Below are positions 27,725-41,348 of a DNA stretch of 64,000 nucleotides, piece by piece. This DNA comes from Candidatus Marinacidobacterales bacterium (GTDB lineage Bacteria > Acidobacteriota > Vicinamibacteria > Marinacidobacterales > DATDRI01). A program made the translations under genes and the position numbers. The notes beneath the pieces were generated by a model, which searched no databases, was not told the origin of the DNA, and saw nothing but the letters and a program-made list of their open reading frames with translations. Every line of letters begins with the position of its first letter. Within the stretch, counting starts at the first letter, position 1. The stretch lies in contig CBDCNP010000002.1 of NCBI GenBank assembly GCA_965219415.1, positions 3,072,001 to 3,136,000 of the forward strand. Reading direction: 5' to 3'.

Positions 27725-27958
27725 CCTCACCAATGGTGGCTCGATCGGGCAAGTCTCGGGCGGGACGTTCACGTCCCAAGGTTGGCAGGTCCAGAAGAAG
27801 AATAACTTCATCCGCTACGTTATCCGTCCGGCAAGGGCAGGCTCTCTGCCCCAGGCCGTCGAGCCCTGTGCCAGGGTGGCAGCCGAGGTGCCAAAAACCG
27901 CCGCTTGTCGCATGAAATCTCTACGGTTCATTACACTTCCCCTCTGAGCTCCCAGGCC

Positions 27959-29176
27959 TCACTCACTCGCTGGCCGAACCAGCCAGCTCTGGAGTGGATT
28001 CCCGCGCTCGATGACGCTCACCCCGGGTCGGGCGGCGTCGTTGAAGCCCGCCACCGTCCGTTCGAAGTTACTGAACAACGCCGGCAATCCTTTAGCCTCC
28101 AGCCATTCCGGTCCGGTCATTAGATTGAAGTGAACGTGGGGCACCAAGGCATTAGAGTTTCCCACCCGACCGATGAACTGACCCGCCTTCACGGGGTCGC
28201 CGACTTTGACCGGGATGCTGCCAGCCAGGAGATGGCAGGTCAACGAGTACTCACCGTCACCGTGGTCTAAGGACACGAAGTTGCCGGCAAAAACATCCCC
28301 GTCCTCTTCGAGGAGCTCCCGCGCCGCGGTCTCTCCGATCGGGTAGTCCGGTATGTCGTTTCGGACGTCCACCACCACCCCATCGCTGGCCGCGTGCACC
28401 GGCTCACCATGGCCGTAGTAGTCATCGGGTTCTTCCCCATCGGTTCGATAAAGGAGACCGTTCTCCCCCACTTTCACGAAATCCCAACCATAAGTGGTGA
28501 GACCGTTGAGACCGGTGCGCCGGTGGCCGGTGGAGAGATCGTTGCCCGCGTAGACCGCCCAGGTGCCCTCGAAGGGAAGCCTCAGGGTGACCTTTTGCTG
28601 GTAATAGACGACGGGAATCGTGAACGTTACGACTCCCGGCTTGCCTTTCGCGTCGCGCATCCGGAAAACGAGCTCGATGGAATCCGCGTTGGCGAACACC
28701 GGCCGGGAAAAGGGGATTCTGACCCAAGAGACATTTTCCCCGGGCGGCAGATCCGGTCCGGCGTGCTTCTCGCCCTCCGGCTTCCCGTAGACCTTGGTGA
28801 GATAGTATTCCTTGGTCATTGCGTAGGCCCCCTGGATCCACTCCATGCGCTCCAGGTACCCTCGGGGGTATATCTCACGCCAAACGGTTTCCTCTCCGCG
28901 TGTAAAGACGGCTTCGACTTCCTCGATAGCGAGGGCTTCGCTCTCCTGCGACTCGATGACCAGATGGAACAACCAGGTGAGCTTGTAGGGATCGGAGTTG
29001 GCGACGCGGGCGGGCGATGCCGGGTCCCGCTCGATGCCCTCGACGGCGGCGTAGACCACCGAGGGCACCGTCCGGATACTGACGTCGAACGTCCGACTCT
29101 CGCTTCCGGAGCATCCGAGAACGGCCGCGAGCATCGCTGAGAGTGCGGATAGAAAAAGAAGCTTATGAAACCTCAT
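27959..29176 (-). CDS. M23-family metallopeptidase, probable lipoprotein
   Basis: Lipobox VLGC; YGWDF, V-H-A-A-S-D-G, GN...HL and GNS...PHVHF motifs. Confidence 0.85.
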   Translation of the reverse strand: MRFHKLLFLSALSAMLAAVLGCSGSESRTFDVSIRTVPSVVYAAVEGIERDPASPARVANSDPYKLTWLFHLVIESQESEALAIEEVEAVFTRGEETVWREIYPRGYLERMEWIQGAYAMTKEYYLTKVYGKPEGEKHAGPDLPPGENVSWVRIPFSRPVFANADSIELVFRMRDAKGKPGVVTFTIPVVYYQQKVTLRLPFEGTWAVYAGNDLSTGHRRTGLNGLTTYGWDFVKVGENGLLYRTDGEEPDDYYGHGEPVHAASDGVVVDVRNDIPDYPIGETAARELLEEDGDVFAGNFVSLDHGDGEYSLTCHLLAGSIPVKVGDPVKAGQFIGRVGNSNALVPHVHFNLMTGPEWLEAKGLPALFSNFERTVAGFNDAARPGVSVIERGNPLQSWLVRPASE

Positions 29177-29430
29177 GACGCCTCCTCAAGGCACTGAGCT
29201 AGCTGCTCTTGTGATACGTTTAACTTCTTCCGAAGTGTTCGCAGCAGCGTCGGAACACGTGTCTTTATTGTCATCTGGCCTCTCAATAGTATCAGACTCA
29301 GGTCGTATGGCAGTCAATATAGCACTTGCAAGCGCCATGTCACGCGGCATGCTTGCTGAAATTAGGTGTCATTTTCTTGTGCGCCACGCACCGGCACAGC
29401 TTGTCCGGTGCCTCCACGCGGCGCTTGAAG

Positions 29431-30236
29431 GGTATTGTCAAGTTGACGTTGAGCGAGCGAACCTATCGCGTCGAGCTGACTTCCTTTGCTCTCATCGGAC
29501 GGCACAGGTTACCTCCTGCCAGACGATGAAAGCGCGGTCTCGTAGCTCCCGATGATGATGCGCTTGCAACAAATGCCGTCCGACGCGAAAGAGATTTTGC
29601 ACGAGTCCATGCACGGTCAAGAATCGTTGCGCCTGCCCAGGAGCTTTAAACTTCCGCATCTGTCGTTCCCGTTGTCGCGTCGGTTCGTGCGAGACTTCGG
29701 CTAGGTTGTTTCTGTACTGGTCAGTGTCGTGGACGACGGACGGCATGACCTCGCGGTGAGCGGCGCTGTAGCTTCTCAGTTTGTCGGTGACCAGCTGCCA
29801 GGGCGGACGGCCTTGCCCCTTCAACAGCTTGCGGAAGAATCGTTTGGCGGCTTTCTGATCACGGCGAGGCTGGACGAGGATATCGATTACATCACCATCT
29901 TGGTCTACCGCGCGCCAGAGGTATTGGCGTTCACCTTGTATCTTTATGAAGACCTCGTCCAGGTGCCATGTGTCACCGAGACGACCCTGCCGACGCTTCA
30001 GTCGCCGAGCGTATTCCGGCCCGAACTTAATGCACCACAGTCGGACCGCTTCGTAAGAAACCGTGATGCCTCGCTGAGCGAGCAACTCTTCGACGTTTCG
30101 AAAGCTCACGCAGAATCGGTGGTAGAGCCAGACGGCGTGGCTGATGATTTCCGGTGGAAATCGATAGCCGTGGTAGCTTGGCGCATCGGTCTTCATTGGA
30201 CCATTCTGTCAGTCACCAGCTCAATTTGACAATACC
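29431..30236 (-). mobile_element. IS6 family element
   Basis: Inverted repeats GGTATTGTCAAGTTGA and GGTATTGTCAAATTGA. Confidence 0.92.
29492..30196 (-). CDS. IS6 family transposase
   Basis: YRFPPEIISHAVWLY, WHLDEVF, YLWRAVDQDG, VTDKL and NNLAEVSH. Confidence 0.95.
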   Translation of the reverse strand: MKTDAPSYHGYRFPPEIISHAVWLYHRFCVSFRNVEELLAQRGITVSYEAVRLWCIKFGPEYARRLKRRQGRLGDTWHLDEVFIKIQGERQYLWRAVDQDGDVIDILVQPRRDQKAAKRFFRKLLKGQGRPPWQLVTDKLRSYSAAHREVMPSVVHDTDQYRNNLAEVSHEPTRQRERQMRKFKAPGQAQRFLTVHGLVQNLFRVGRHLLQAHHHRELRDRAFIVWQEVTCAVR

Positions 30237-31309
30237 GTCCCGACGAGTACCGCGATCATTACCAGATGAGCCGTGAGGGAATCGATCTCATCGAGTCGAT
30301 CATCAGAGAAAACAGCCTACCCGTTCCGTTTCGGCGTGAGGGCTGTCTCAAAGTGTTTACCAGCCAGAGACGAGCCGATATCGCTGCCGCCGAGACCGAA
30401 AGGCGTCATGCCGCCGGTGTTCCGGAGGAGTTCCTCGCCGGGGAAGTGTTGGACGATTGGATTCGAATGCGGGGTGCCAAGGGTGCCATCCTCGACCCTA
30501 CCGCCGGTCAGCTGAACGGTGCTCGATTCATTCGCAGTTTGCGGCCGATCTTGGCGAACCGGGGTGTCGAGATTTACGAGCGAACGCCGGTGCTCTCGGT
30601 TCAAGAAGGCTCCGAGGTGAGACTCGAGACGGCCGCCGGTGAGGTCAGAGCCCGAGCCATCGTCTTGGCGACCAATGCCTACACCCCACGCCTCGGCTAC
30701 TTCAAGAACCAGCTCATCCCGATACATTCGCACGTCCTCGCGACCGAGCCCCTTACTAATAAGGAGTGGGCGGAGATCGGCTGGCGAAGAGGCTGTGGGT
30801 TCGTCGATGATTCGAGCCGACTAGCGTATGGCGCGATGACGGCACAAGGGCAAATGGTTTTTGGAGGCGGGAGTAACGCGTCTTACGACTATCTCTTCGG
30901 CGGCCGGGTGAGCCTTTCTGAAAAGAACGGGCAAGCTACCAACGCGGTGTTCAAACAGCTAGGGCGCTATTTCCCGAGTGCACGTCTAGTGGGAGTGCAT
31001 CAACGTTGGAGCGGTGCGATCGGCATGACGCTCGACCGCGTGCCTACGATTGGCGTGCGGGGCGAGAACCCTAACGTTTACTTTGCGTTGGGCTATAGCG
31101 GGTTCGGGATCACGATGTCGAACTTGGCGGGAAAGATGCTCTGCGACGTTTATAGCGACGACGATGACCGCTGGCGCACCCTACCTTTTTATTGTCGGGA
31201 GCCGTCGTGGATCCCACCCGAACCGCTGCGCTGGCTAGGTTACAAGACCTTTACTGGGCTGACTGGCAACTCCCCTCGCACCTGGTACAAGAAACGCGCG
31301 CGCTCGTAG
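30237..31309 (+). pseudogene. FAD-dependent oxidoreductase (DadA/PuuB family), N-terminus removed at IS6
   Basis: IVLATNAY, ATEPL, WSG and ALGYSGFGI motifs; no N-terminal GxGxxG. Confidence 0.8.
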
Positions 31310-31395
31310 CAGCCTTCCTCTACATGGCGATGAAGGTGTACCTTAGCAACGCAGCCCGAGGGATTCGGCGCAGTCTTCTGGGCTAAAAAGATCAA

Positions 31396-32520
31396 ATGGC
31401 ACGACTTGTTCTAGTAGGAGCGGGACACGCCCACATGGAGGTGATCCGGCGTCTCATTCTGGCACCCGGTTCTTGGGCGGATCTCACCGTGGTGTCCCAA
31501 TTCGACAAGCACCACTACTCGGGGATGGTGCCGGGGTATCTCCGGGGGAGCTACCGCGAGAACGAAATCTCTTTCGACCTGCCACCGCTGATCGCCTCCG
31601 CCGGGGGTGAGTTCGTATGCAGGCGAGCGGTCGGTATCGATCCCGCCCGCCGCGTCGTTCGCTTGGAAGGTGGTGGGGAGATCGAATACGATATTGTTTC
31701 TTTCAACGTCGGGTCTCGGACCATCGCAGGGGATTCCGCGGGGCCGCACGCGGCGCTCGTGAAACCCATGTCCCGGGCGGTCGAACTTCATAGTCGCATA
31801 CTGGAGCTCGCCCATCGTGACGGGGGCAAGACACGGCATGCGGCCGTGGTTGGCGGAGGGTCCGCGGGGGTGGAGATAGCTTGTGCCATGGCCGCGTTAC
31901 TCGACGACGCAGGTGGCCGTCGGGACATAAAGATCGTCGAGGGTTCGGACGGCATTCTTCGGGGGTATTCGGAGCGGTTTCGAAAACGGACCGAAAGTAT
32001 CCTGAGGGATCAAAACATCCAAGTGCGCACCGGCCGGCGAGTCGTCAAGGTCCACCCGGACACGGTTGAGCTCGAGGACGGTTCTCGCGTCAAGAGTGAT
32101 TTGACCGTGTGGCTGACCGGCCCGGCAGGCCCCGGGATCTTCGAAGGCTCGAAGCTCGAGCTCGACGGTCGCGGCTTCCTTCTCGTCGACGACGCCCTTC
32201 GCTCGTTGAGCGATCCCAATGTGCTTGGCGTCGGCGATTGTGTCACCCTGGCAAACTATCCGGCCACGCCGAAGGCAGGGGTCTTTGCGGTACGAGAAGC
32301 GCCGGTGCTTTGGGAGAGCCTTCTTTCCGCGGTCGGCCAGGGAGCCCTGCCTCGCTACCAACCGCAGGAGGGCTTTCTTTCTATCCTCAATACTGCCGAC
32401 GGAAAGGCCCTGCTACGATACAAGTCCTACATCACACATAGTTTTCTCGCCTGGTGGCTCAAGGATTGGATCGATCGGCGTTTTGTGGCGAAGTACCAAG
32501 GTCTGGTTGGAGCGAACTAG
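31396..32520 (+). CDS. Pyridine nucleotide-disulfide oxidoreductase of the type found N-terminally fused to SelD
   Basis: LVLVGAGHAH, YSGMVPG, VVGGGSAGVE, GD, PKAGVFAVR and WWLKDWIDRRF. Confidence 0.85.
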   Translation: MARLVLVGAGHAHMEVIRRLILAPGSWADLTVVSQFDKHHYSGMVPGYLRGSYRENEISFDLPPLIASAGGEFVCRRAVGIDPARRVVRLEGGGEIEYDIVSFNVGSRTIAGDSAGPHAALVKPMSRAVELHSRILELAHRDGGKTRHAAVVGGGSAGVEIACAMAALLDDAGGRRDIKIVEGSDGILRGYSERFRKRTESILRDQNIQVRTGRRVVKVHPDTVELEDGSRVKSDLTVWLTGPAGPGIFEGSKLELDGRGFLLVDDALRSLSDPNVLGVGDCVTLANYPATPKAGVFAVREAPVLWESLLSAVGQGALPRYQPQEGFLSILNTADGKALLRYKSYITHSFLAWWLKDWIDRRFVAKYQGLVGAN

Positions 32521-32522
32521 CT

Positions 32523-33221
32523 ATGTACTTCCGCCATTCCGACGAAATGTGGCGGAAGTTTCCGCAGCTCGTTCCTGGAGCGCTGGTTATTGCCGGCGTT
32601 CACCCCGATGGCGAAGTGAGCCTCGCGCCCTGGTTCGATCGCGCTCGGGAACGCTTGGAGGCCGGTTCAGAGTCCAAGTTGCCCGAGATCGTCGCTTGGC
32701 GTCGTGCCTACGCGCAGATGGGAATGAAACCCACTCAGTACCGTTCCGCGGCCGAGGCGCTTTTGCGTCGCTTCCGGACGGAAGACGATTTGCCTCGTCT
32801 TCATCCTCTGGTCGATCTTTGTAACGCAGTCTCGCTGGCCTTCGCACTACCGGTCGCGGTTTTCGATCTCGCCAAAGTGGATCGGCATCTCGAAGTGCGT
32901 CATTCAAAAGGTGTCGAGCAGTACTTGACCTTCTCCGGCGAAATTGAGACCCCGCCTCAAGGAGAGGTGATCTTCGCCGACGCTTCGAATCAGGCTCACG
33001 CTCGCCGGTGGACGTTTCGCCAGAGCAAGAGATCGGCGGTGGGCCCGGGGACAACGCGGGCGCTCATTGTCGCGGAGGGATTGCATGAGACGGCCTCCCG
33101 GGATGTCGCCGCACTAATGGACGTGCTCGAAGAGGCGCTCACGAAATCTTGGGCGGCTCCGCAACACCGGGTCCTTCTGAGCGCCGAGGCCCCCCGCTTG
33201 GAGCTCGAGACCGATCTCTGA
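32523..33221 (+). CDS. Stand-alone B3/B4 (PheRS editing-like) domain protein
   Basis: AWRRAY...KPTQYRSAAEALLRR, LVDLCNAVSL, VFDL and RRWTFRQS. Confidence 0.88.
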   Translation: MYFRHSDEMWRKFPQLVPGALVIAGVHPDGEVSLAPWFDRARERLEAGSESKLPEIVAWRRAYAQMGMKPTQYRSAAEALLRRFRTEDDLPRLHPLVDLCNAVSLAFALPVAVFDLAKVDRHLEVRHSKGVEQYLTFSGEIETPPQGEVIFADASNQAHARRWTFRQSKRSAVGPGTTRALIVAEGLHETASRDVAALMDVLEEALTKSWAAPQHRVLLSAEAPRLELETDL

Positions 33222-33507
33222 TATTAAAAGGAGGAAGCCATGCCAACGGTTCGATTGAGAAACGTGTCCGAGTATCCCGAGAAGATGCAAAAGCGCTTCG
33301 AGGTGGCCAAGGAGTGGTTCAACTATGACTTCGAGTCACCGCCGGCGATGAGCCTGGTGATGGCGTGGGACCCCGGGTTCGGAGCTCCGCATGGCCGCGC
33401 CATGAAGCGCGCCGCGGAACCTGGAGAGTTCACGCGCGCCGAAAAAGAGATGGTGGCGTCCGTCGTTAGCGGCGTGAACGCCTGCGAGTATTGAGTGAAG
33501 GCACATA

Positions 33508-33527
33508 CTGCGGCCGGGAAGCTGCAG
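33508..33527 (+). promoter_or_regulatory. SECIS-like hairpin
   Basis: CTGCGGC-CGGGAA-GCTGCAG: 7-bp stem and G-containing loop 20 nt after the UGA. Confidence 0.65.
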
Positions 33528-33901
33528 GGGATGAAGGAAGACGCACTCTGGTATGAAGCGGCGAACACGGTGGGGATCACCAACGCGCCTCAACGTCGTC
33601 ACCGATTCTCTGTCTCCCGACGCCAATACTCATCTTATCGAGCCCATAGATGAAGGGGCCGACGACAAGAGGACCGCCCTGTGTTTCGCGGAGATCCGAG
33701 ATTTTTACCAGAGTGAGGAAGTGCCGCTTCCGTTTCGGATCGCGGCGCATGACCCGGGCTACCTGGGAGATCTTTGGGAGACCGTCCGACATGCATTCAG
33801 CGATAGACGGCTCACCAGACGTCTCAAGGAGGCGCTGGCATTCGCGGTGTCGGTCACGACGACCTCCCGATTCGGCACCGTCTTTCACCTGGCGGAGATG
33901 C

Positions 33902-35336
33902 GAGTCAAGCCCATTCTTAGTTGAAACTCTCCACGGCTCACGTTTAAGCGACCTTCTTCTTCGATACGGTTGATGTCTTCGCCTCGATCTTCAGTTCCCG
34001 CTTGAGAGCTTCGCGAAGCTTGGGAAGATGGCGGTAGCCCACCACCTTCCTCAAGCGCGGTTCGATGTCTACGAGCGCCGTTGCCAACCAGCGCTGGCGT
34101 TGGCTTGAGTTCTTCCAGTGGTCGACCTTCGTGCAGCGTTCCTCGACGAGAGCATTGACGGACTCAAGGCAGTTCGTCGTCTTGAACGAACGGCCCAGCA
34201 CCGCGTGCACGCCGAGTCGATGCAACGTCAGCGTCTCCTCGAGGCCTTCCTCCAGGCTGCCAGCTGCGGATTGGTTCCGCTCTTCTAACTCACCGTGGAG
34301 TTGCTCGAGCGCAGTGAGGGCCTCTTCGTACTCCGGCCTGTTGTAGGCCCACTGGAGCCGCTTGCGCCATGACGCCTGCTCGCCCTTGGACAGGTAGCTC
34401 ACTACGTTTTCACGTTTGTGCCACTGGCAGCGTTGTATCAGGGCCCGCTTACGGAATGCCTTCTTGACTGCCGCTTGGAGACCCTTGCCGCCGTCGATGA
34501 TCACCAGCAGACCCTGGGAGATATCGAGTCCCCGCTCGAGCAGTGAACGCAGGAACGGCGTCAACACCTGCGCGTTCTCCGTGTCCGTCTCCACGAAGCC
34601 CAAGAAGCGTTTTTCCCCGCAAAGCGTGATGCCCAGAGCCACGACCATCGTTGCCTCGGCGAATGTCTTCCCATCCAGAAACAGCGCCACCACATCCTCG
34701 CCGGTCAGATCCCGTTCCTGCATCTCCCGCAGCTTCGCAGCGCTCGCTTGCACGAACCCTCGGGACACCGTTGAGCTCGACAGCCCGATGGCGCCCGGAA
34801 TCGCTTCCGCTGCCGCCTCGTAGTTGCGACAAGAGATTCCGTAGAGAACTCGTTTCAGCAGAAGATCATTCACCTCACCGCCGTGGCTCACCGCCTCGTA
34901 GCAGCGAAGCGGAATCTCTCCTCCCTCGATGCTCCGAACCCGTGGCACACGGATCGGTACCCGCTGGCCGCCAAGCCCTACCGTGCCCGGGTTGCTTCCG
35001 GGACGGCGACCGCGCTCCAGCTCGTCCTTGCGAGAGTATCGCTCTCCCGCCAACGCCTTCACTTCGTCGTCGAGCAACTCGTGAACGTGCATTAGACCAA
35101 GGGGGACCAACCAACGGATCATCTCTACCTTGGCGTCCAGCGCGAGTTCCCCGTAATCCTCGTGCCTCACCATCTCGACCTCACCCAAACGACGCGACTT
35201 CTTGCGTTTCTTGACCGAACGTAGCAGACTTCCCATCTCGGCTCCTTTCTTCGCGGCTTGATTTTGTTTTGTCCAACGCCATCAAACCACGGGGTTTGGA
35301 GCCGTTTCAATTCCCAACTAAGATTGGCACACTTTC
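33902..35336 (-). mobile_element. IS256 family element
   Basis: Imperfect inverted repeats GAGTCAAGCCCATTCTTAGTTG and GAAAGTGTGCCAATCTTAGTTG; 8-bp flanks GGAGATGC and GCAGATGC. Confidence 0.9.
33944..35236 (-). CDS. IS256 (mutator-type) transposase
   Basis: LFLDG, IIDGGKGL, QRCQWHK and TTNCLESVN. Confidence 0.93.
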   Translation of the reverse strand: MGSLLRSVKKRKKSRRLGEVEMVRHEDYGELALDAKVEMIRWLVPLGLMHVHELLDDEVKALAGERYSRKDELERGRRPGSNPGTVGLGGQRVPIRVPRVRSIEGGEIPLRCYEAVSHGGEVNDLLLKRVLYGISCRNYEAAAEAIPGAIGLSSSTVSRGFVQASAAKLREMQERDLTGEDVVALFLDGKTFAEATMVVALGITLCGEKRFLGFVETDTENAQVLTPFLRSLLERGLDISQGLLVIIDGGKGLQAAVKKAFRKRALIQRCQWHKRENVVSYLSKGEQASWRKRLQWAYNRPEYEEALTALEQLHGELEERNQSAAGSLEEGLEETLTLHRLGVHAVLGRSFKTTNCLESVNALVEERCTKVDHWKNSSQRQRWLATALVDIEPRLRKVVGYRHLPKLREALKRELKIEAKTSTVSKKKVA

Positions 35337-35514
35337 GCAGATGCGCCGGCTGGGAGTAGGAAACAAGGGAGTCATGGAAGTATTAGGCATGACCCAGATG
35401 TTCTCTAGCTACACGAAGATCGCGGATACCCTTCAGCTGGATCCCGACATGAGTGAGATCGCACCCATCGACCGATCTCCCGTGCCCGATCCAAGCTGAA
35501 TCGAGGAGGGAATC

Positions 35515-36171
35515 ATGAAAAAGTGGTTCATTGGAATCGCCATAGTTGCCGGCGTGGCCGGCCTCGCCGGCTGGGGCTACTATTACGCTCTCGAGAAGGC
35601 ATGGATTCCCTACAACGAGTACGACATCCGTTCAGAGGGCACGCTGAGGGTGGGCGATCTCGCACCCGACTTGGAGCTCGCGAGTGCGGACGGGGGGACT
35701 CAAAAATTATCCGATCTCTTCAAACAAAAGCCGTTGGTTCTCATCTTTGGAAGCTACACCTGACCGCCGTTTCGAGCCAGTTTGGCCGAAGTCGAAGAGC
35801 TGAGAACAAAGTATCGAAACGACGCCGAGTTTGCCATCGTTTACATCAAAGAGGCCCATCCCGGGGACGAGTGGCAAGTAGATAGCAACACCGAGGGGGA
35901 AGTCATCTATAACCAGCCGAATTCCTTCGAGGCCCGGATGGATCTCGCCAAGACTTTCATTGACAAGATGGACGTGAAGACCCCGACGCTGGTCGACGAT
36001 ATCCAGAACACCGCCATGGCTTGCTACGCGGCGTGGCCGGAAAGGCTCTACGTCATCGAGACCGGCGGCACCATTGCCTACAAGGGGGATATGGGACCCT
36101 TCGGATTCAAGCCTGAGAAGGTGGAGAGCTACCTCGAGGAGCGTTTCGCCGGAAGGGGCGCGACAGACTAG
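35515..36171 (+). CDS. Iodothyronine-deiodinase-like selenoprotein with N-terminal membrane anchor
   Basis: PLVLIFGSYT-TGA(35761)-PPF, VYIKEAHPGDEW, YAAWPERLYVI and YKGDMGPFGF; both ORF halves are in the same frame. Confidence 0.9.
35771..35790 (+). promoter_or_regulatory. SECIS-like hairpin
   Basis: TTCG-A-GCCA-GTT-TGGC-CGAA; loop G 16 nt after the UGA. Confidence 0.55.
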
Positions 36172-36230
36172 CCTCGTTCCAACTTGAACCTGGCCTAAGC
36201 TTCGGTGTTTGATTTCGGCGAAGTCCAAAA

Positions 36231-37290
36231 ATGAAACCCAACCTTGCTCTTCCGCTCCCCGGATCCGGGCAGCAGATTCGGGCTTTGCAACGAGAGCGGA
36301 AGGCCTTGGCCGTCGAGAGCGCGGGGCGGTCTCGTTTCTGGCGGCCGAGACTGACCCATATCGACACCTCGAAGCTGGACGAACCGGAGGAGTGGCGGAA
36401 GATACCGATCCTTGACAAGGAGATGCTTCGCTCCCTTTCCAACGACCAGTTTTACAACGACTTCTGCATTCCGGCTCCCGGTAAGATAGCCGAACACTGG
36501 CGCTCTGGTGGGACAACAGGGAGGCCGCTCTTTTATCTCCGTACGTTCGAAGACATTCGTTACGCGATGGTGGGCTTCGCACGAAGCTTCATGGCGATGA
36601 ACGTGCAGCCCGGTGAAACCGCGCATCTCTCCCTCCCGCTGGGCATCCACCCGGCCGGTCACATGTGGGCCCGGGCCGGCGAGATGATGGGGATCGGCAT
36701 GAACTGGGTCGGATCGGGAGCCGCGGCGCCTTCGGAGCTCCAGCTCGAGCTGATCGCCACTCTGAAGCCCTCGCTTTGGATCGGCATGCCTAGCTACGGC
36801 CTTCACCTAGCCAACCTTGCGGGCGCTCGGGGTCAGAATCTCCGAGACGGGTCGGTCCAAAAAATTCTGTGCACGGCCGAGCCGCTGTCCCGAGCCAAGC
36901 GCGAAAAGCTCGAGCGCGCGTGGGGAGCCGAAGTGTACGACGCTTTCGGCATGACCGAAGTTTCGATGATGGGTGCCGAAGGCGAGGCAGGGGATGGCCT
37001 CCACATGTGGGCCGACCTTGCGTTCATCGAGGTCGTCGATCCCGCTACCAGCGAGCCTGTGCCGGCTGGCGAACCTGGACTCCTGGTGGTCACGTCACTT
37101 TTCACGAACAACACGACACCTTTTCTAAGATGGTGCTCGGGCGACATCGTGGCTTATCGCGAGCAACGCCACGGCGAGGATCCACTCTCGGTTTTTCCCC
37201 TCCTCCGCCATGCTCACCGAACCGCTGGTTTCTTCAAGATTCGTGGCGTCAACATTAACCACTCGGAGCTCGAGGACCTGATGTTCGCCG
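36231..37290 (+). pseudogene. Phenylacetate-CoA ligase (PaaK-like) family protein, C-terminus apparently lost
   Basis: SGGTTGRP, TAEP, YDAFGMTE, PFLRWCSGD and KIRGVNI; no stop codon, reads through non-family sequence into the next gene. Confidence 0.75.
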
Positions 37291-37394
37291 ATTCCGATTC
37301 TAGACCGGAGACAGTAGCACGGTTACTCTCGGCCCTCCCAAGGCGAGCCGCCCGACTCGTGGTAGTATCGATCTCGGCGTCCTTCCTAAGAACG

Positions 37395-38429
37395 ATGAAG
37401 ACAGCATCTCCACCAACGGCCGAGGACGTAAAAGAACTCGCCCTCGAGCTGGGGGCCGATCTCGTCGGCGTCGCGAGCGCCAAGACACTTAACGCCTTCC
37501 CTCCAGACCCCAAGTATCCGCAGACCCCGGAGCGCGTCTCGCCTTACTGCAAGAGCGTCATCGTCGTCGTGCAACGCATCCCGGTCGGTGCCTTCCGCTG
37601 TAAATCCAATGTGCCGGTTCAGTACTTGGACATGCTCGTGCTCCGGAAGATGGACAAGGTCGCCTACCGGTTGGCCGAGCATTTGGAGCGAGCAGGTTAT
37701 CCGTCCTTTGTTACCGCGGCCCAGGAGACCGACTGGAACTATAAGCGAGCCAGCTACGGGAGGCTGAGCACGCGCCACCTCGGGATCGAAGCGGGACTCG
37801 GTACTTTCGGTCTCGAAGTCAACATTTTGACGCCGGAGTACGGGCCGCGAGTCTACCTCACCGGAATTCTGACCGAGCTCGAGCTCGAGCCCGATGCACC
37901 CATGACCGAGCAGGTGTGTATCGGTGAGTCCTGCAGCCGGTGTCTCTACAGTTGTCCGACCGATGCCATAGGGCATTTCGACATCGACAAACGCGACTGC
38001 GCGAAAGAGGCGCAAGAGTTCGGATTCACCACCATCCTCAAGTATTTCGAGCGTTTCGTGGCGTCGTCCCGGGAGACCAAGGCGGGGATGCTGAAATCGC
38101 GTGACCTGTACGGATTTTGGCAGGGGTTGCTACGGGTAGTCGGATCCTTCGGGGACTGTCCGCGATGCCTCGCCGTCTGCCCGGTCGGAGACGACTACTA
38201 CGCGCATTTGGTCGAGATACAGAAGTTCATTCCCGAAACGACCGACGAAAAGATCACCAAGGCCAAGGGGTTCAAGGCGGCCCGCAAGCGTGGCGATGCC
38301 ATCGAGGGGCTCAACGAATGGAACGCCCGATGGGTGGGACCGGAGGGCTACCAAGGGCTCGTCGCACGGCACCTGAAGAAATTCCGTGAGAAACAAAAGG
38401 CGCTTCTAGCGCGGTCTGCGAAGAGATAG
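37395..38429 (+). CDS. QueG/reductive-dehalogenase-like cobalamin 4Fe-4S protein, copy 1
   Basis: LGADLVGVA, EAGLGTFG...LTPEYGPRVYL, CIGESCSRCLYSCP and C...CPRCLAVCP. Confidence 0.82.
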   Translation: MKTASPPTAEDVKELALELGADLVGVASAKTLNAFPPDPKYPQTPERVSPYCKSVIVVVQRIPVGAFRCKSNVPVQYLDMLVLRKMDKVAYRLAEHLERAGYPSFVTAAQETDWNYKRASYGRLSTRHLGIEAGLGTFGLEVNILTPEYGPRVYLTGILTELELEPDAPMTEQVCIGESCSRCLYSCPTDAIGHFDIDKRDCAKEAQEFGFTTILKYFERFVASSRETKAGMLKSRDLYGFWQGLLRVVGSFGDCPRCLAVCPVGDDYYAHLVEIQKFIPETTDEKITKAKGFKAARKRGDAIEGLNEWNARWVGPEGYQGLVARHLKKFREKQKALLARSAKR

Positions 38430-38439
38430 TTCCCGCATT

Positions 38440-39456
38440 ATGATCGAGACTTACCAAGCGCCGCTTACCGCCCAGCAGATCAAGGCAAAGGCACGTGAGC
38501 TCGGCGCCGACTTGGTCGGAATCGCCGACGGCAAGGTGATGGAGGAACACCCTCCCGAACCGAGCGATCCGCGGCGACCCTCCGATATCACCGACTATGA
38601 CGCCGATCGCGTCATCGTCATGGCGAAAAAGTATACGAGCGGCACCTCCCGCATTCTCCCCTGGAACGATCGCCACAAGTACTACAACGACGAGCTGACT
38701 TTAACCATGTTGGAAGAGGCCTCGCTGGAGCTCGTTTACTGGCTCGAGGACAACGGCTATCCGTCGGTCATCATTCCTCCCACCCACGTCGACCCCTGGC
38801 GCTATCAAGACCAGCCGGAGGAACATCAAAAGACGCTACTATCGCTCACCCATGCTGCGGTCGAGGCGGGATTGGGGACCCTCGGCCTAAACCTGCAGCT
38901 GCTTACCCCCGAGTACGGACCGCGGGTGATTCTCACTGCGGTGCTGTGCTCCGTGGACTGCGAAGCAGGCAGTCGCGTCGAAGAAGCGTTATGTCTCGGA
39001 CCCGAGTGTGGGCGGTGTTTGGAAACCTGTCCCGGAGACGTCGTCCAACATTGGAATCGCGATTGGGAAGGCTGTGATCGTTACCGATCACCCCACGGCT
39101 TCGCCCAGCTCACCGACCATCTGGTCAACATCCTGGACCAGACGGACGTCCCCAAGCAAAAAGAGATGATCCGCTCGGAGGAAAGCTTCAACCTCTGGCA
39201 GAGTATTTTGCGAGGGGCCGGCGTCATTACTGGCTGCCGCCGCTGCCAAGACGTCTGCCCGGTGGGAGAAGACTACGCCGCCCTCGAGGATGCACTCGAG
39301 GAGCTCCCGGAGAGCACGCCCGAGAAGAAGCAACGTCTCCTAGAGATGATGAAGGTCGAGAAAAAGGAAATCCCCCCTGGCGGCTACCAAGCCCAGCGCC
39401 GCTGGATCGGGGAGGTTACGTACCGGAAGCCCTGGCCTAAAGCTTTCGACGTTTGA
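38440..39456 (+). CDS. QueG/reductive-dehalogenase-like cobalamin 4Fe-4S protein, copy 2
   Basis: LGADLVGIA, HAAVEAGLGTLG...LTPEYGPRVIL, CLGPECGRCLETCP and C...CRRCQDVCP. Confidence 0.85.
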   Translation: MIETYQAPLTAQQIKAKARELGADLVGIADGKVMEEHPPEPSDPRRPSDITDYDADRVIVMAKKYTSGTSRILPWNDRHKYYNDELTLTMLEEASLELVYWLEDNGYPSVIIPPTHVDPWRYQDQPEEHQKTLLSLTHAAVEAGLGTLGLNLQLLTPEYGPRVILTAVLCSVDCEAGSRVEEALCLGPECGRCLETCPGDVVQHWNRDWEGCDRYRSPHGFAQLTDHLVNILDQTDVPKQKEMIRSEESFNLWQSILRGAGVITGCRRCQDVCPVGEDYAALEDALEELPESTPEKKQRLLEMMKVEKKEIPPGGYQAQRRWIGEVTYRKPWPKAFDV

Positions 39457-39665
39457 GTAACAGGAATTCTCAAGTGGGTTAGGGCGCGCCCACGACAGTG
39501 TCATCCCCTAACTAACCCAGTAGCTAGAGCTTACGGTCATAGGGTTCCGTTGGTCATATTTTATATTCTTTAATTAGCTCTATGAGATAACTATTGCAAA
39601 TAAATTATGAGAATCGCCGAAATTGTGATATTATCGATGCAACAATTAGCCTCAAAGAAGAACTA

Positions 39666-40502
39666 ATGAACTCACAATATCACGCTCCGGCCAAGACACT
39701 GGGACCCCAAGCGGCGGGCCTCGTGGTGGCGTTGTATGAATGTGATCGCCCCGTTTTCACAGTGAAGGAGGCGGCGGACATTACGGGACTAGGTCCAGCC
39801 GCCGCCGCCAGGTTCCTGCACAAGCTCGCGCGACGTGGAATCCTGACCCACTTGGGACGTGGCCTCTACAGGCTCATCCCTTTCGAATTGGGTTCGGCAC
39901 GCGAGTTCCTTGGCAATCCGTTCGTTATCGTGCGTGAGTTCGCGCGGGGCGCCGACTACTACGTCTCCCACGCATCGGCAATGGACATTCATGGCATGCT
40001 CACCCAACCCCAACTCGTCGTGTACGCAACCTCCCCGAAGCAGATTCGGAGTCGGGAGGTGCTGGGCACCGTGTTCCGGCTCGTGCGATGCAAGGCAAAT
40101 CATTTTTTCGGCACGTTCGAGCACTGGGCAGACAAGCAGGAAAAGATCGTCGTGAGCGACCTAGAGCGGACTGTGCTGGACGGCCTGAAGCAGCCACAGT
40201 ACACCGGAGGGATTACCGAGGTCGCCAAGGGGATGTGGATGAGGCGGGATGGTCTCAGCGTTCCCAAACTCGTCGACTACGCGCTCCGGCTCGGAATCGG
40301 CGCAGTCGTTCGCCGCTTGGGTTTTCTGCTCGAGCTCTATGAGCTTGGACCTTCGACGGAGTTGGATCGCCTTCGGGATAAACTGAGCTCGACGTACATG
40401 CTTCTCGACCCGCTGCTTTCTCCGGGAGGCAAGTACTTGTCTCGCTGGCGACTGCGCCTCAATGTAATACCCGAGGAACTTCAAACCGTCGTACGTACGT
40501 GA
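39666..40502 (+). CDS. abiEi: Type IV toxin-antitoxin antitoxin, AbiEi family
   Basis: N-terminal wHTH (LGRGLY), YYVSHASAMDIHGM and VSDLERTVLD. Confidence 0.85.
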   Translation: MNSQYHAPAKTLGPQAAGLVVALYECDRPVFTVKEAADITGLGPAAAARFLHKLARRGILTHLGRGLYRLIPFELGSAREFLGNPFVIVREFARGADYYVSHASAMDIHGMLTQPQLVVYATSPKQIRSREVLGTVFRLVRCKANHFFGTFEHWADKQEKIVVSDLERTVLDGLKQPQYTGGITEVAKGMWMRRDGLSVPKLVDYALRLGIGAVVRRLGFLLELYELGPSTELDRLRDKLSSTYMLLDPLLSPGGKYLSRWRLRLNVIPEELQTVVRT

Positions 40503-40505
40503 ACT

Positions 40506-41348
40506 ATGATCCACCAGCGCAACCTTTCGCTACTCTCGAACCGTCTCGCGAGGAAAGGTGGACACCGGATTCCCGAACGAGTTCTTGAGCGGGACTATTG
40601 CCTAGCGTGGTTCCTTGTCTCCCTCTCAAAAACACCCCTCCGTAAGTTCCTGGCATTCAAGGGAGGAACGGCCCTGAAGCGCTGCTATTTCGGCGACTAC
40701 AGGTTCTCCGAGGACCTCGATTTTACGCTGCAATCCGAAACGACTTGGGAAGAGATCCGTCGAAATCTTGATCAGGTTCTCGATGAAGTCCGACGCGCCT
40801 CGGCGATCGTCTTCGAGTTCCTAGAGAGGGACGGAAGGAGTCACGAGAATAGCCACACGTTCTACCTTGGCTACGAAGGACCGCTCCCGGCAAGCTCTGG
40901 AAGAAGGGTGAAAGTAGACATCACAATCAAAGAAAGGGGCGTTTTCTCATTAGAAGATCGACCGGTCTTACGAGGATACGATGAATACGAAGACTTGCCG
41001 GACGATAGCCCGATCTTAGTCTACTCCCTCAAGGAAATTGCGACGGAGAAAGTAGTCGCCCTCATAGATCCGGCGCGGAACGAACCTCGCGACTTGTACG
41101 ACATATGGTTTCTGGAAAGCAGCGGCTCCGTCAGAGTCGATGATCTCTTGAGCGCCGTCGAGGAGAAGTTGGACTTTCGCGGGAAGACTCTCACCGACGT
41201 GAAAAGCGTATTCCACACCAAGGAGAGCCGGTACAAGCGGCTCTGGGAAGGACGCCTCTCCGCACAGATGAGGGAGATCCCGGAGTTCGAGAAGGTCTAT
41301 CGCGAGGTGCAACGAGCATTCAGACAGGCGGGCCTATTGGAGAAATAG
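40506..41348 (+). CDS. abiEii: AbiEii/AbiGii nucleotidyltransferase toxin
   Basis: ERDY, FKGGTALK, RFSEDLDF, EK...R and RDLYD. Confidence 0.92.
   Translation: MIHQRNLSLLSNRLARKGGHRIPERVLERDYCLAWFLVSLSKTPLRKFLAFKGGTALKRCYFGDYRFSEDLDFTLQSETTWEEIRRNLDQVLDEVRRASAIVFEFLERDGRSHENSHTFYLGYEGPLPASSGRRVKVDITIKERGVFSLEDRPVLRGYDEYEDLPDDSPILVYSLKEIATEKVVALIDPARNEPRDLYDIWFLESSGSVRVDDLLSAVEEKLDFRGKTLTDVKSVFHTKESRYKRLWEGRLSAQMREIPEFEKVYREVQRAFRQAGLLEK

Follow-up and report, generated by a model that had tools for sequence, protein, structure and literature searches.

A probable mosaic operon of selenoprotein, deacylase-like and QueG/RdhA-like genes, eroded by mobile elements in one strain of a marine Acidobacteriota genus

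Deiodinase-like selenoproteins (PF00837) and AhpD-like selenoproteins with a CMD domain and a C-x-x-U motif (PF02627, TIGR01926) are two bacterial families on record since 2005 (Zhang, Fomenko and Gladyshev 2005, PMC1088965). For the deiodinase-like family in bacteria, that paper suggests a function in redox chemistry and not in the deiodination of hormones; PMC13188914 reports operons of peroxiredoxin (Prx)-like and AhpD-like selenoprotein genes in marine metagenomes. The canavanyl-tRNA(Arg) deacylase CtdA (PDB 9f7e and 9mkl) has a stand-alone B3/B4 fold of ~230 aa (PMC10018355, PMC12449066), and its residue C166 is given in the latter as strictly conserved in characterised CtdA-1 proteins. 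QueG and RdhA belong to a superfamily of class III cobalamin enzymes. Here we describe a locus at positions 30237 to 39456 of a 64,000-nucleotide stretch (the window) of the genome of a Candidatus Marinacidobacterales bacterium (GCA_965219415.1, contig CBDCNP010000002.1, positions 3,072,001 to 3,136,000), in which relatives of all of these proteins are encoded side by side, together with a DAO-type oxidase, a flavoprotein and a PaaK-like ligase. An initial annotation, made from the window sequence alone, had described eight co-directional, closely spaced genes and proposed that they combine selenium- and cobalamin-dependent dehalogenation of aromatic compounds in one pathway.

Gene order in the genus and the fate of the genes elsewhere

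Gene families were assigned by Pfam and NCBIfam profile scans of the window proteins. All eight families named in the initial annotation were found at the locus, and each of its family assignments held. Comparison with other genomes nevertheless led us to a different view of how the genes belong together: we consider it rather probable that the locus is a lineage-specific mosaic operon of a single genus of marine Acidobacteriota, and that mobile elements are eroding it in this strain.

The relatives set comprised 100 genomes, and the search with the CMD protein was extended to 400 further genomes of the phylum. G001 and G002, marine Acidobacteriota of the same genus as the window genome (G000), are called congeners below. 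In both, the order is DAO oxidase, flavoprotein, B3/4 protein, CMD selenoprotein, deiodinase-like selenoprotein, Q1 and Q2, where Q1 and Q2 denote two adjacent QueG/RdhA-like paralogues. The gaps are 2-20 nt, there are no insertion sequence (IS) copies and no ligase gene, and the proteins are 81-97% identical to those of the window. In G001, a gene for an M19 dipeptidase precedes the DAO gene, and Q2 overlaps at its end with an alkaline-phosphatase-like gene.

Outside the genus, co-location was examined in the closest 80 or fewer loci per gene, many of them on short metagenome contigs. Orthologues of the deiodinase-like protein (E <= 1e-40, TGA present) were found in 26 other genomes among the 100 relatives. 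Neighbourhoods were taken from 20 of these 26 (18 from outside the genus and the two congeners), with up to 10 kb per side and shorter flanks where contigs ended. None of the 18 non-genus loci contained another cluster gene, so that only the two congeners held any, and no conserved neighbour was found in the fetched loci. Orthologues of the CMD protein were restricted to the genus among the 100 relatives, and none was detected in the 400 further genomes; the family is common in metagenomes, with 1,283 matches. In three of 80 metagenome loci (91-98% identity), the deiodinase gene is adjacent. The remaining 77 lie outside the genus and contain no other cluster member; a flank of at least 2 kb was available on one side or the other in 43 of them, and on both sides in 17. 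Conserved neighbours of the CMD gene in a soil clade (genes for an SLT transglycosylase, a lipid A acyltransferase and a multihaem cytochrome) were considered and set aside as mere lineage synteny with housekeeping genes. No cluster partner occurred in any of six loci with B3/4 orthologues (61-67% identity), which had no neighbour in common, or near the only close stand-alone orthologue of the flavoprotein (67% identity, in genome G003).

The distribution of Q1 is of another kind. Among the 100 relatives its orthologues occur only in the genus, and orthologues with 72-79% identity were recovered in 79 non-genus genome loci, in Alphaproteobacteria and other phyla. In 80 Q1 loci, Q2 was adjacent every time, and a gene for a PaaK-like ligase was present in 75. 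A selenoprotein, B3/4 or flavoprotein gene was found in none of the 79 non-genus loci; the same-genus locus alone has more partners. The three proteins are encoded together in metagenome-assembled genomes of Alphaproteobacteria, Rokubacteria, SAR324 and Burkholderiales, with 60-79% identity for Q1/Q2 and 50-73% for the ligase fragment. There, the surroundings include genes for a second acyl-CoA synthetase, Liv-type ABC transporters, an enoyl-CoA hydratase and an acyl-CoA dehydrogenase. The ligase gene lies downstream in these loci, whereas in the window it lies upstream, is truncated, is fused in frame to Q1, and is absent from the congeners at this site.

The initial annotation had itself stated that it would be refuted if, among other outcomes, homologues are never co-located in other genomes. 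This is largely what we found: outside the genus, no locus examined showed co-location, with the exception of Q1, Q2 and the ligase. The genes do not co-occur by genome either, as CMD and Q1 are confined to the genus among the 100 relatives, whereas the deiodinase gene is present in 26 others. Judged by these comparisons, the cluster genes other than the trio are a recent juxtaposition confined to the genus, and the trio of Q1, Q2 and ligase is a widespread uncharacterised module that we take to be the sole conserved functional unit of the cluster. The deiodinase, B3/4 and flavoprotein genes were inherited vertically, and CMD and Q1/Q2 were probably acquired.

Under this interpretation, the operon would join three separately inherited pieces. 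The first would serve thiol/selenol redox chemistry and amino-acid quality control, with the stand-alone flavoprotein, the CtdA-like deacylase, a cytoplasmic CMD selenoprotein with a CxxU motif and a membrane-anchored deiodinase-like selenoprotein. The second would be the trio, with two QueG/RdhA-type Fe-S (probably cobamide) paralogues and the PaaK-like ligase. The third, upstream, would be the DAO-type oxidase, paired with the M19 dipeptidase in the congener. The identities of the genes, their Sec codons, their breaks and their distribution among genomes are observations; all enzymatic roles and the membrane topology are inferred.

Disruption of the locus in this strain

In the strain studied here, the genes for the DAO oxidase, the CMD selenoprotein and the ligase are all disrupted. 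The description of eight co-directional, closely spaced genes thus stands as far as the families are concerned, but the genes are neither all intact, nor all co-directional, nor all closely spaced: two are truncated, one is frameshifted, and an IS element on the minus strand interrupts the latter. With these three genes broken, the eight-gene catabolic pathway could not run in this strain as it had been drawn.

The DAO-family FAD oxidoreductase gene (30266-31309, plus strand, as are all cluster genes) lacks ~92 N-terminal codons and is either a pseudogene or N-terminally shortened. Its Pfam DAO match begins at profile position 63 of 353; the G001 orthologue has 448 aa with a full DAO domain, of which the window genome holds only residues 93-448. 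Homology of the DAO gene to the congeners begins exactly at the end of an IS6-family element (29431-30237, minus strand; transposase 29492-30196, Pfam DDE_Tnp_IS240 129.7 bits), and synteny with G001 and G002 runs from 30239. A BLAST search of the region against the whole genome, by which IS copies were identified, returned seven copies of this element of ~807 bp at >=97% identity, the window copy included. Over a stretch of 111 residues, the IS6 transposase has a 100% identical counterpart at L213 3481-3813, in a genome of a different family (G016), which suggests that the element is shared between distantly related genomes.

The CMD gene has suffered twice. It has one extra base near 33588, a +1 frameshift when set against the congeners and 77 metagenome loci, in which the gene is intact; in G001, the gene is a single frame of 271 aa. 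In addition, an IS256-family element of 1,436 bp (33902-35337, minus strand; transposase 33944-35236, Transposase_mut 127.2 bits) separates the 5' part (33240-33901) from the 3' end (35338-35499), which shares 88-92% identity with the C-terminal part of the unbroken gene in the congeners. The 8-Mb genome contains 34 near-full-length copies of this element that are >=99.5% identical, as well as many fragments.

The ligase gene (36231-37320) is truncated at its 3' end. Its product is 64% identical to the full-length ligase of an alphaproteobacterial locus (L052) up to residue ~353-363 of ~425, where homology stops, so that the C-terminal ~65-70 residues are missing; the remnant and Q1 share one 732-codon frame. 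The deletion junction that the initial annotation suspected near 37290 is therefore real. Its caveat that the RdhA-like pair may not be an original neighbour has to be turned around: in the congeners, the pair directly follows the deiodinase gene, and the ligase is the piece that they lack. Window positions 36169-37418 stand where G001 has 33 bp, and G001 has no close ligase copy anywhere. G002 carries a PaaK-like gene 73% identical to the window fragment (G002:C5:79156-80154), ~30 kb from its cluster, with an internal TGA and no Q1/Q2 beside it.

The upstream flank in the window consists of repeats, a segment with an M23-peptidase gene and the IS6 copy. The M23-peptidase segment (27829-29188) is 99% identical to contig C22 of G002, compared with only ~86% identity to G002 for the cluster itself; this indicates that the segment was recently exchanged. 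Downstream of the cluster, an AbiEi/AbiEii toxin-antitoxin cassette (39594-41348, plus strand; Pfam AbiEi_4 and AbiEii) stands where G001 has its alkaline-phosphatase-like gene after Q2, and synteny with G001 resumes at ~41379.

A genome so rich in IS copies invites misassembly, and the frameshift in the CMD gene sits in a short G/C run; the cluster could in principle be an assembly chimera or contain sequencing errors. We compared the locus with Logan contigs of public runs: X1 and X2 (from two studies; the source sample may be among them), X7 (from a third study) and X17 (RNA). Contigs of X1 and X2 reproduced 31546-33928, 31190-33880 and 35312/35339-39600 with 0 differences, an agreement that extends to the additional base at 33588 and to the point where the ligase remnant meets Q1. 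The IS junctions are bridged by only 26-27 letters each, under the 31-letter rule used for read support. The structure found in the assembly is reproduced in data from two studies, and we regard an artefact as extremely unlikely.

A contig of run X7 joins 33895 to 35339, skipping 1443 positions with 7 shared letters, and lacks the extra base at 33588. The shared letters are consistent with target duplication. Because this contig has neither the IS nor the extra base, an intact CMD allele exists in nature. The IS-free joint is also present in X2 at low depth; public reads thus show this IS256 copy to be polymorphic, and the element looks to have expanded recently and to be doing so still. The IS-free strain of X7 has a one-base insertion at 35854, in the deiodinase gene, and a one-base deletion at 36849, in the ligase fragment; each occurs in a single contig, at depths of 6.7-9.6, and they may be real variants or contig errors. 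The RNA run X17, a sponge metatranscriptome, yielded only sequence of the multi-copy IS elements, not attributable to any one copy, and one 149-nt contig that agrees exactly with a portion of the flavoprotein gene, and gives no usable evidence for or against expression.

The two selenoproteins and the flavoprotein

The in-frame TGAs of both the CMD and the deiodinase-like gene are genuine selenocysteine (Sec) codons, as had been proposed. The deiodinase-like gene (35515-36171) is apparently intact. Its product matches PF00837 (T4_deiodinase) with 127.8 bits against a threshold of 27, contains the motif GSYT-U-PPF with the UGA (U83) at 35761-35763, and also matches the AhpC-TSA and Redoxin profiles. 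In all 20 orthologue loci, the TGA lies within FGS[YC]T-U-PPFR. A hairpin with a G in its loop begins 8 nt after the UGA, with a z of only -1.08 in a single-sequence fold. RNAalifold found no consensus structure across 21 of the stretches downstream of the deiodinase UGA, because the hairpins sit in different registers.

The protein resembles the described bacterial deiodinase-like selenoproteins (PMC1088965) in its thioredoxin fold, its FGSxT-U-PPF motif and a downstream EAH motif; the hairpin after the UGA is a candidate SECIS element. It differs in its N-terminal membrane anchor. The NCBIfam profile NF038285 (deiodinase_rel) is matched with 189.7 bits against a cut-off of 250, and only over positions 177-338 of 347. 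In some relatives, such as genome G028 (G028:C6:197333-197953; L034 8315-9976), the deiodinase-like domain forms the end of a far longer open frame, which runs for 553 codons to the UGA; the family thus also has longer, fused members.

The CMD protein scores 33.8 bits with the CMD domain (threshold 23) and has the motif C-E-Y-U, with the UGA (U85) at 33492-33494. Of 82 related loci, 81 keep the TGA. Some ~17 nt downstream lies a conserved hairpin, whose mean z of -0.86 over 40 sequences is weak. The initial annotation had warned that standard gene calling splits both selenoproteins; public gene calls of the CMD family do begin after the UGA, giving proteins of 172-238 aa that cover 60-69% of the query. 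The CMD domain, the C-x-x-U motif, the conserved TGA and the hairpin are shared with the described AhpD-like/CMD selenoproteins (PMC1088965, PMC13188914). In contrast to these, the window protein belongs to a family with a two-domain 271-aa architecture, the copy in this strain is a pseudogene, and the scores fall under the cut-offs of TIGR01926 (35.4 vs 81.8) and NF041238 (25.5 vs 175).

The genome has a second gene for a two-domain CMD selenoprotein (G000:C3:3644692-3645432; L217 9864-10793, minus strand), with the motif ACEYU and 33-36% identity, which is also present in both congeners. It adjoins a gene for an FkbM-type methyltransferase and lies 1.4 kb from a DAO-type gene. We rejected the idea that this paralogue and the DAO-type gene form a recurring pair, as a glycosylase gene on the opposite strand lies between them.

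The genome encodes the machinery for Sec decoding, with scores over the cut-offs for selA (569.7 bits), selB (375.8), selD (328.3) and tRNA-Sec (69.7). Use of B12 is indicated by a true QueG (375.1 bits), a cobalamin riboswitch and cobS. Genes for Sec decoding and B12 use are therefore present elsewhere in the genome.

The initial annotation had further proposed an electron chain from NAD(P)H through the flavoprotein and the AhpD-like protein to the deiodinase-like enzyme. The N-terminus of the latter consists of a conserved MKKW and a hydrophobic anchor, with a hydrophobic segment at residues 4-22. By the positive-inside rule, the catalytic domain should face outward, away from the flavoprotein and the cytoplasmic CMD protein, which has no N-terminal hydrophobic segment of the deiodinase type. 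From these sequence features, the deiodinase-like enzyme is membrane-anchored and probably faces the periplasm; an outward-facing domain weakens the proposed chain, which we now consider doubtful.

The flavoprotein, a stand-alone pyridine-nucleotide-disulfide oxidoreductase (31396-32520), matches TIGR03169, the 'N-terminal-to-SelD' family, over its full length (2-365) with 304.9 bits, narrowly under the cut-off of 310. In all four genomes of families f2 and f3 that were checked (G008, G028, G041 and G013), a homologue and SelD are fused into a single frame of 750-900 codons. The SelD of the window family is unfused and carries Sec (C-A-G-U; G000:C3:3889655-3890587, L222), whereas the fused f2/f3 SelD is of the Cys type; the difference looks like the result of a fission or replacement event.

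These observations allow a selenium-centred account of the locus, in which the flavoprotein would be the split-off partner of SelD and supply reduced selenium. The two selenoprotein genes would then be co-regulated, the CMD protein and the Prx-fold deiodinase-like protein would act in peroxide or disulfide reduction, and the Q1/Q2 module and the B3/4 gene would be passengers. The TIGR03169 score, the SelD fusions of the homologues, the unfused Sec-type SelD of the window family and the AhpC-TSA and Redoxin matches of the deiodinase-like protein all agree with such an island, as do the Prx-like and AhpD-like selenoprotein operons reported in PMC13188914. However, the flavoprotein gene is not beside selD in the window genome or in G003. 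The 18 deiodinase loci and 77 CMD loci outside the genus do not contain the other selenoprotein gene or the flavoprotein gene, and the topology mismatch applies here too. We consider this account unlikely, and prefer the reading of a mosaic whose selenoprotein genes became neighbours within the genus.

The deacylase-like protein, the reductase pair and the question of a single pathway

The stand-alone B3/4-domain protein (32523-33221; Pfam B3_4 82.8 bits) is a putative aminoacyl-tRNA deacylase. It matches the solved trans-editing deacylase CtdA (PDB 9f7e, E 5.8e-13; 9mkl, E 7.9e-13), which provides a precedent for the translational protection proposed in the initial annotation. In a residue numbering that depends on a +2 offset inferred from the alignment, it keeps N105, R172 and Q173 of CtdA, and its pocket differs by G116->A, E118->F, C166->A, N170->T and W171->F. 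These changes, including that of C166, make canavanine an unlikely substrate. They suggest that the amino-acid analogue removed by this protein is another, more hydrophobic one.

Q1 (37395-38429) and its paralogue Q2 (38440-39456; ~34% identity to Q1) both match Fer4_16, and each has two 4Fe-4S-type Cys motifs. Residues 29-185 of Q1 align to residues 80-232 of QueG (PDB 5d08), the cobalamin-binding core, with E 2.7e-11; the match to PceA has E 1e-7. On this basis, Q1 and Q2 are placed in the QueG/RdhA superfamily, although both score far under the cut-offs for QueG (TIGR00276: 58.6 and 38.4 vs 200) and for RdhA (TIGR02486: 43.0 and 25.1 vs 160.35). No twin-arginine signal was seen at the N-terminus of either protein, and AlphaFold2, given an alignment of 26 sequences, produced a poor model of Q1 (mean pLDDT 50.8, pTM 0.46). 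As an adjacent paralogue pair with a ligase, they differ from both QueG and RdhA. The ligase falls well below the PaaK cut-offs, with 112.5 bits against 646 for TIGR02155 and 138.4 against 700 for NF041878.

The ligase would probably activate an organic, probably aromatic, acid to a CoA thioester, and a Q1/Q2 heterodimer would then reduce a substituent on the activated acid; a halide, a hydroxyl or an epoxide oxygen is each conceivable. A search of an open-access library gave no paper that unites an epoxyqueuosine reductase, a phenylacetate-CoA ligase and a reductive dehalogenase, which is not proof that the trio is unpublished. The initial annotation had included the ligase in a pathway with the selenoproteins. 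Its tie to the reductase pair is firm (75 of 80 loci), but it has none to the selenoproteins.

The initial annotation can be amended to fit these results. In the amended proposal, the whole operon would process a halogenated aromatic amino acid from a host, bromo- or iodotyrosine for example, in a single pathway. This amino acid would be released and deaminated by the dipeptidase and the DAO oxidase, the ligase would activate the resulting aryl acid, and Q1/Q2, the deiodinase-like selenoenzyme or both would remove the halogen. The CtdA-like deacylase would keep the analogue out of proteins, while the flavoprotein and the AhpD-like selenoprotein would recycle the selenoenzyme. All of the families are present, as is the Sec and B12 machinery; the congeners have little space between the genes, the ligase accompanies Q1/Q2 in 75 of 80 loci, and a sponge habitat is weakly hinted at. 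The B3/4 protein also resembles a proven anti-analogue deacylase and has a more hydrophobic pocket than CtdA as described in PMC12449066.

However, the genes show neither co-location nor co-occurrence outside one genus. The congeners lack the ligase at this site, and between them only G002 has a copy, 73% identical and 30 kb away. The deiodinase-like domain is probably periplasmic, away from the cytoplasmic reductants, and Q1 and Q2 score far below the reductive dehalogenase and QueG cut-offs. Dehalogenase activity of bacterial deiodinase-like proteins is not demonstrated in the accessible text of PMC1088965 and PMC13188914, and three of the genes are broken in this strain. We judge a single halotyrosine pathway to be unlikely. 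A combined selenium and B12 dehalogenation pathway is possible but unsupported by comparative evidence.

Several observations weigh against regarding the locus as a mere mosaic. The congener operon has the packing of a translationally coupled one: the B3/4 ATG follows the stop codon of the flavoprotein gene by 2 nt, and the start of Q1 comes 3 nt behind that of the deiodinase gene. Such an operon, assembled from vertical and horizontal parts, could reflect selection for joint function. The flavoprotein-identical contig of 149 nt in the sponge metatranscriptome is a weak hint that the habitat is a sponge. Halogenated tyrosines are common in sponges. The more hydrophobic pocket of the B3/4 protein (E118->F, W171->F, C166->A and G116->A, compared with CtdA in PMC12449066) fits an aromatic amino-acid analogue. 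In addition, the absence of co-location rests on the limited sample of closest loci given above, with its many short metagenome contigs.

These points could be accommodated if the intact congener operon (flavoprotein, CtdA-like deacylase, AhpD-like and deiodinase-like selenoproteins, and Q1/Q2) were a selected unit for tolerating and feeding on a host-made halogenated aromatic amino acid, in a genus that is possibly sponge-associated. The deacylase would block entry of the analogue into proteins, and the selenoenzyme and the cobamide enzyme would dehalogenate the free compound and the CoA-activated acid. We think such a unit very unlikely, and retain the lineage-specific mosaic as the preferred explanation.

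If the genes did form one pathway after all, it would give a first function to bacterial deiodinase-like selenoproteins and to the ligase-coupled QueG/RdhA-like pair, and would extend CtdA-type trans-editing to a new amino-acid analogue. The comparison of loci assigns the ligase to the reductase pair and not to the selenoproteins, and it reveals both selenoprotein genes as promiscuous neighbours. The locus also offers a series of IS-driven decay in natural populations: public reads contain an undamaged allele, one that carries the IS, and the frameshift.

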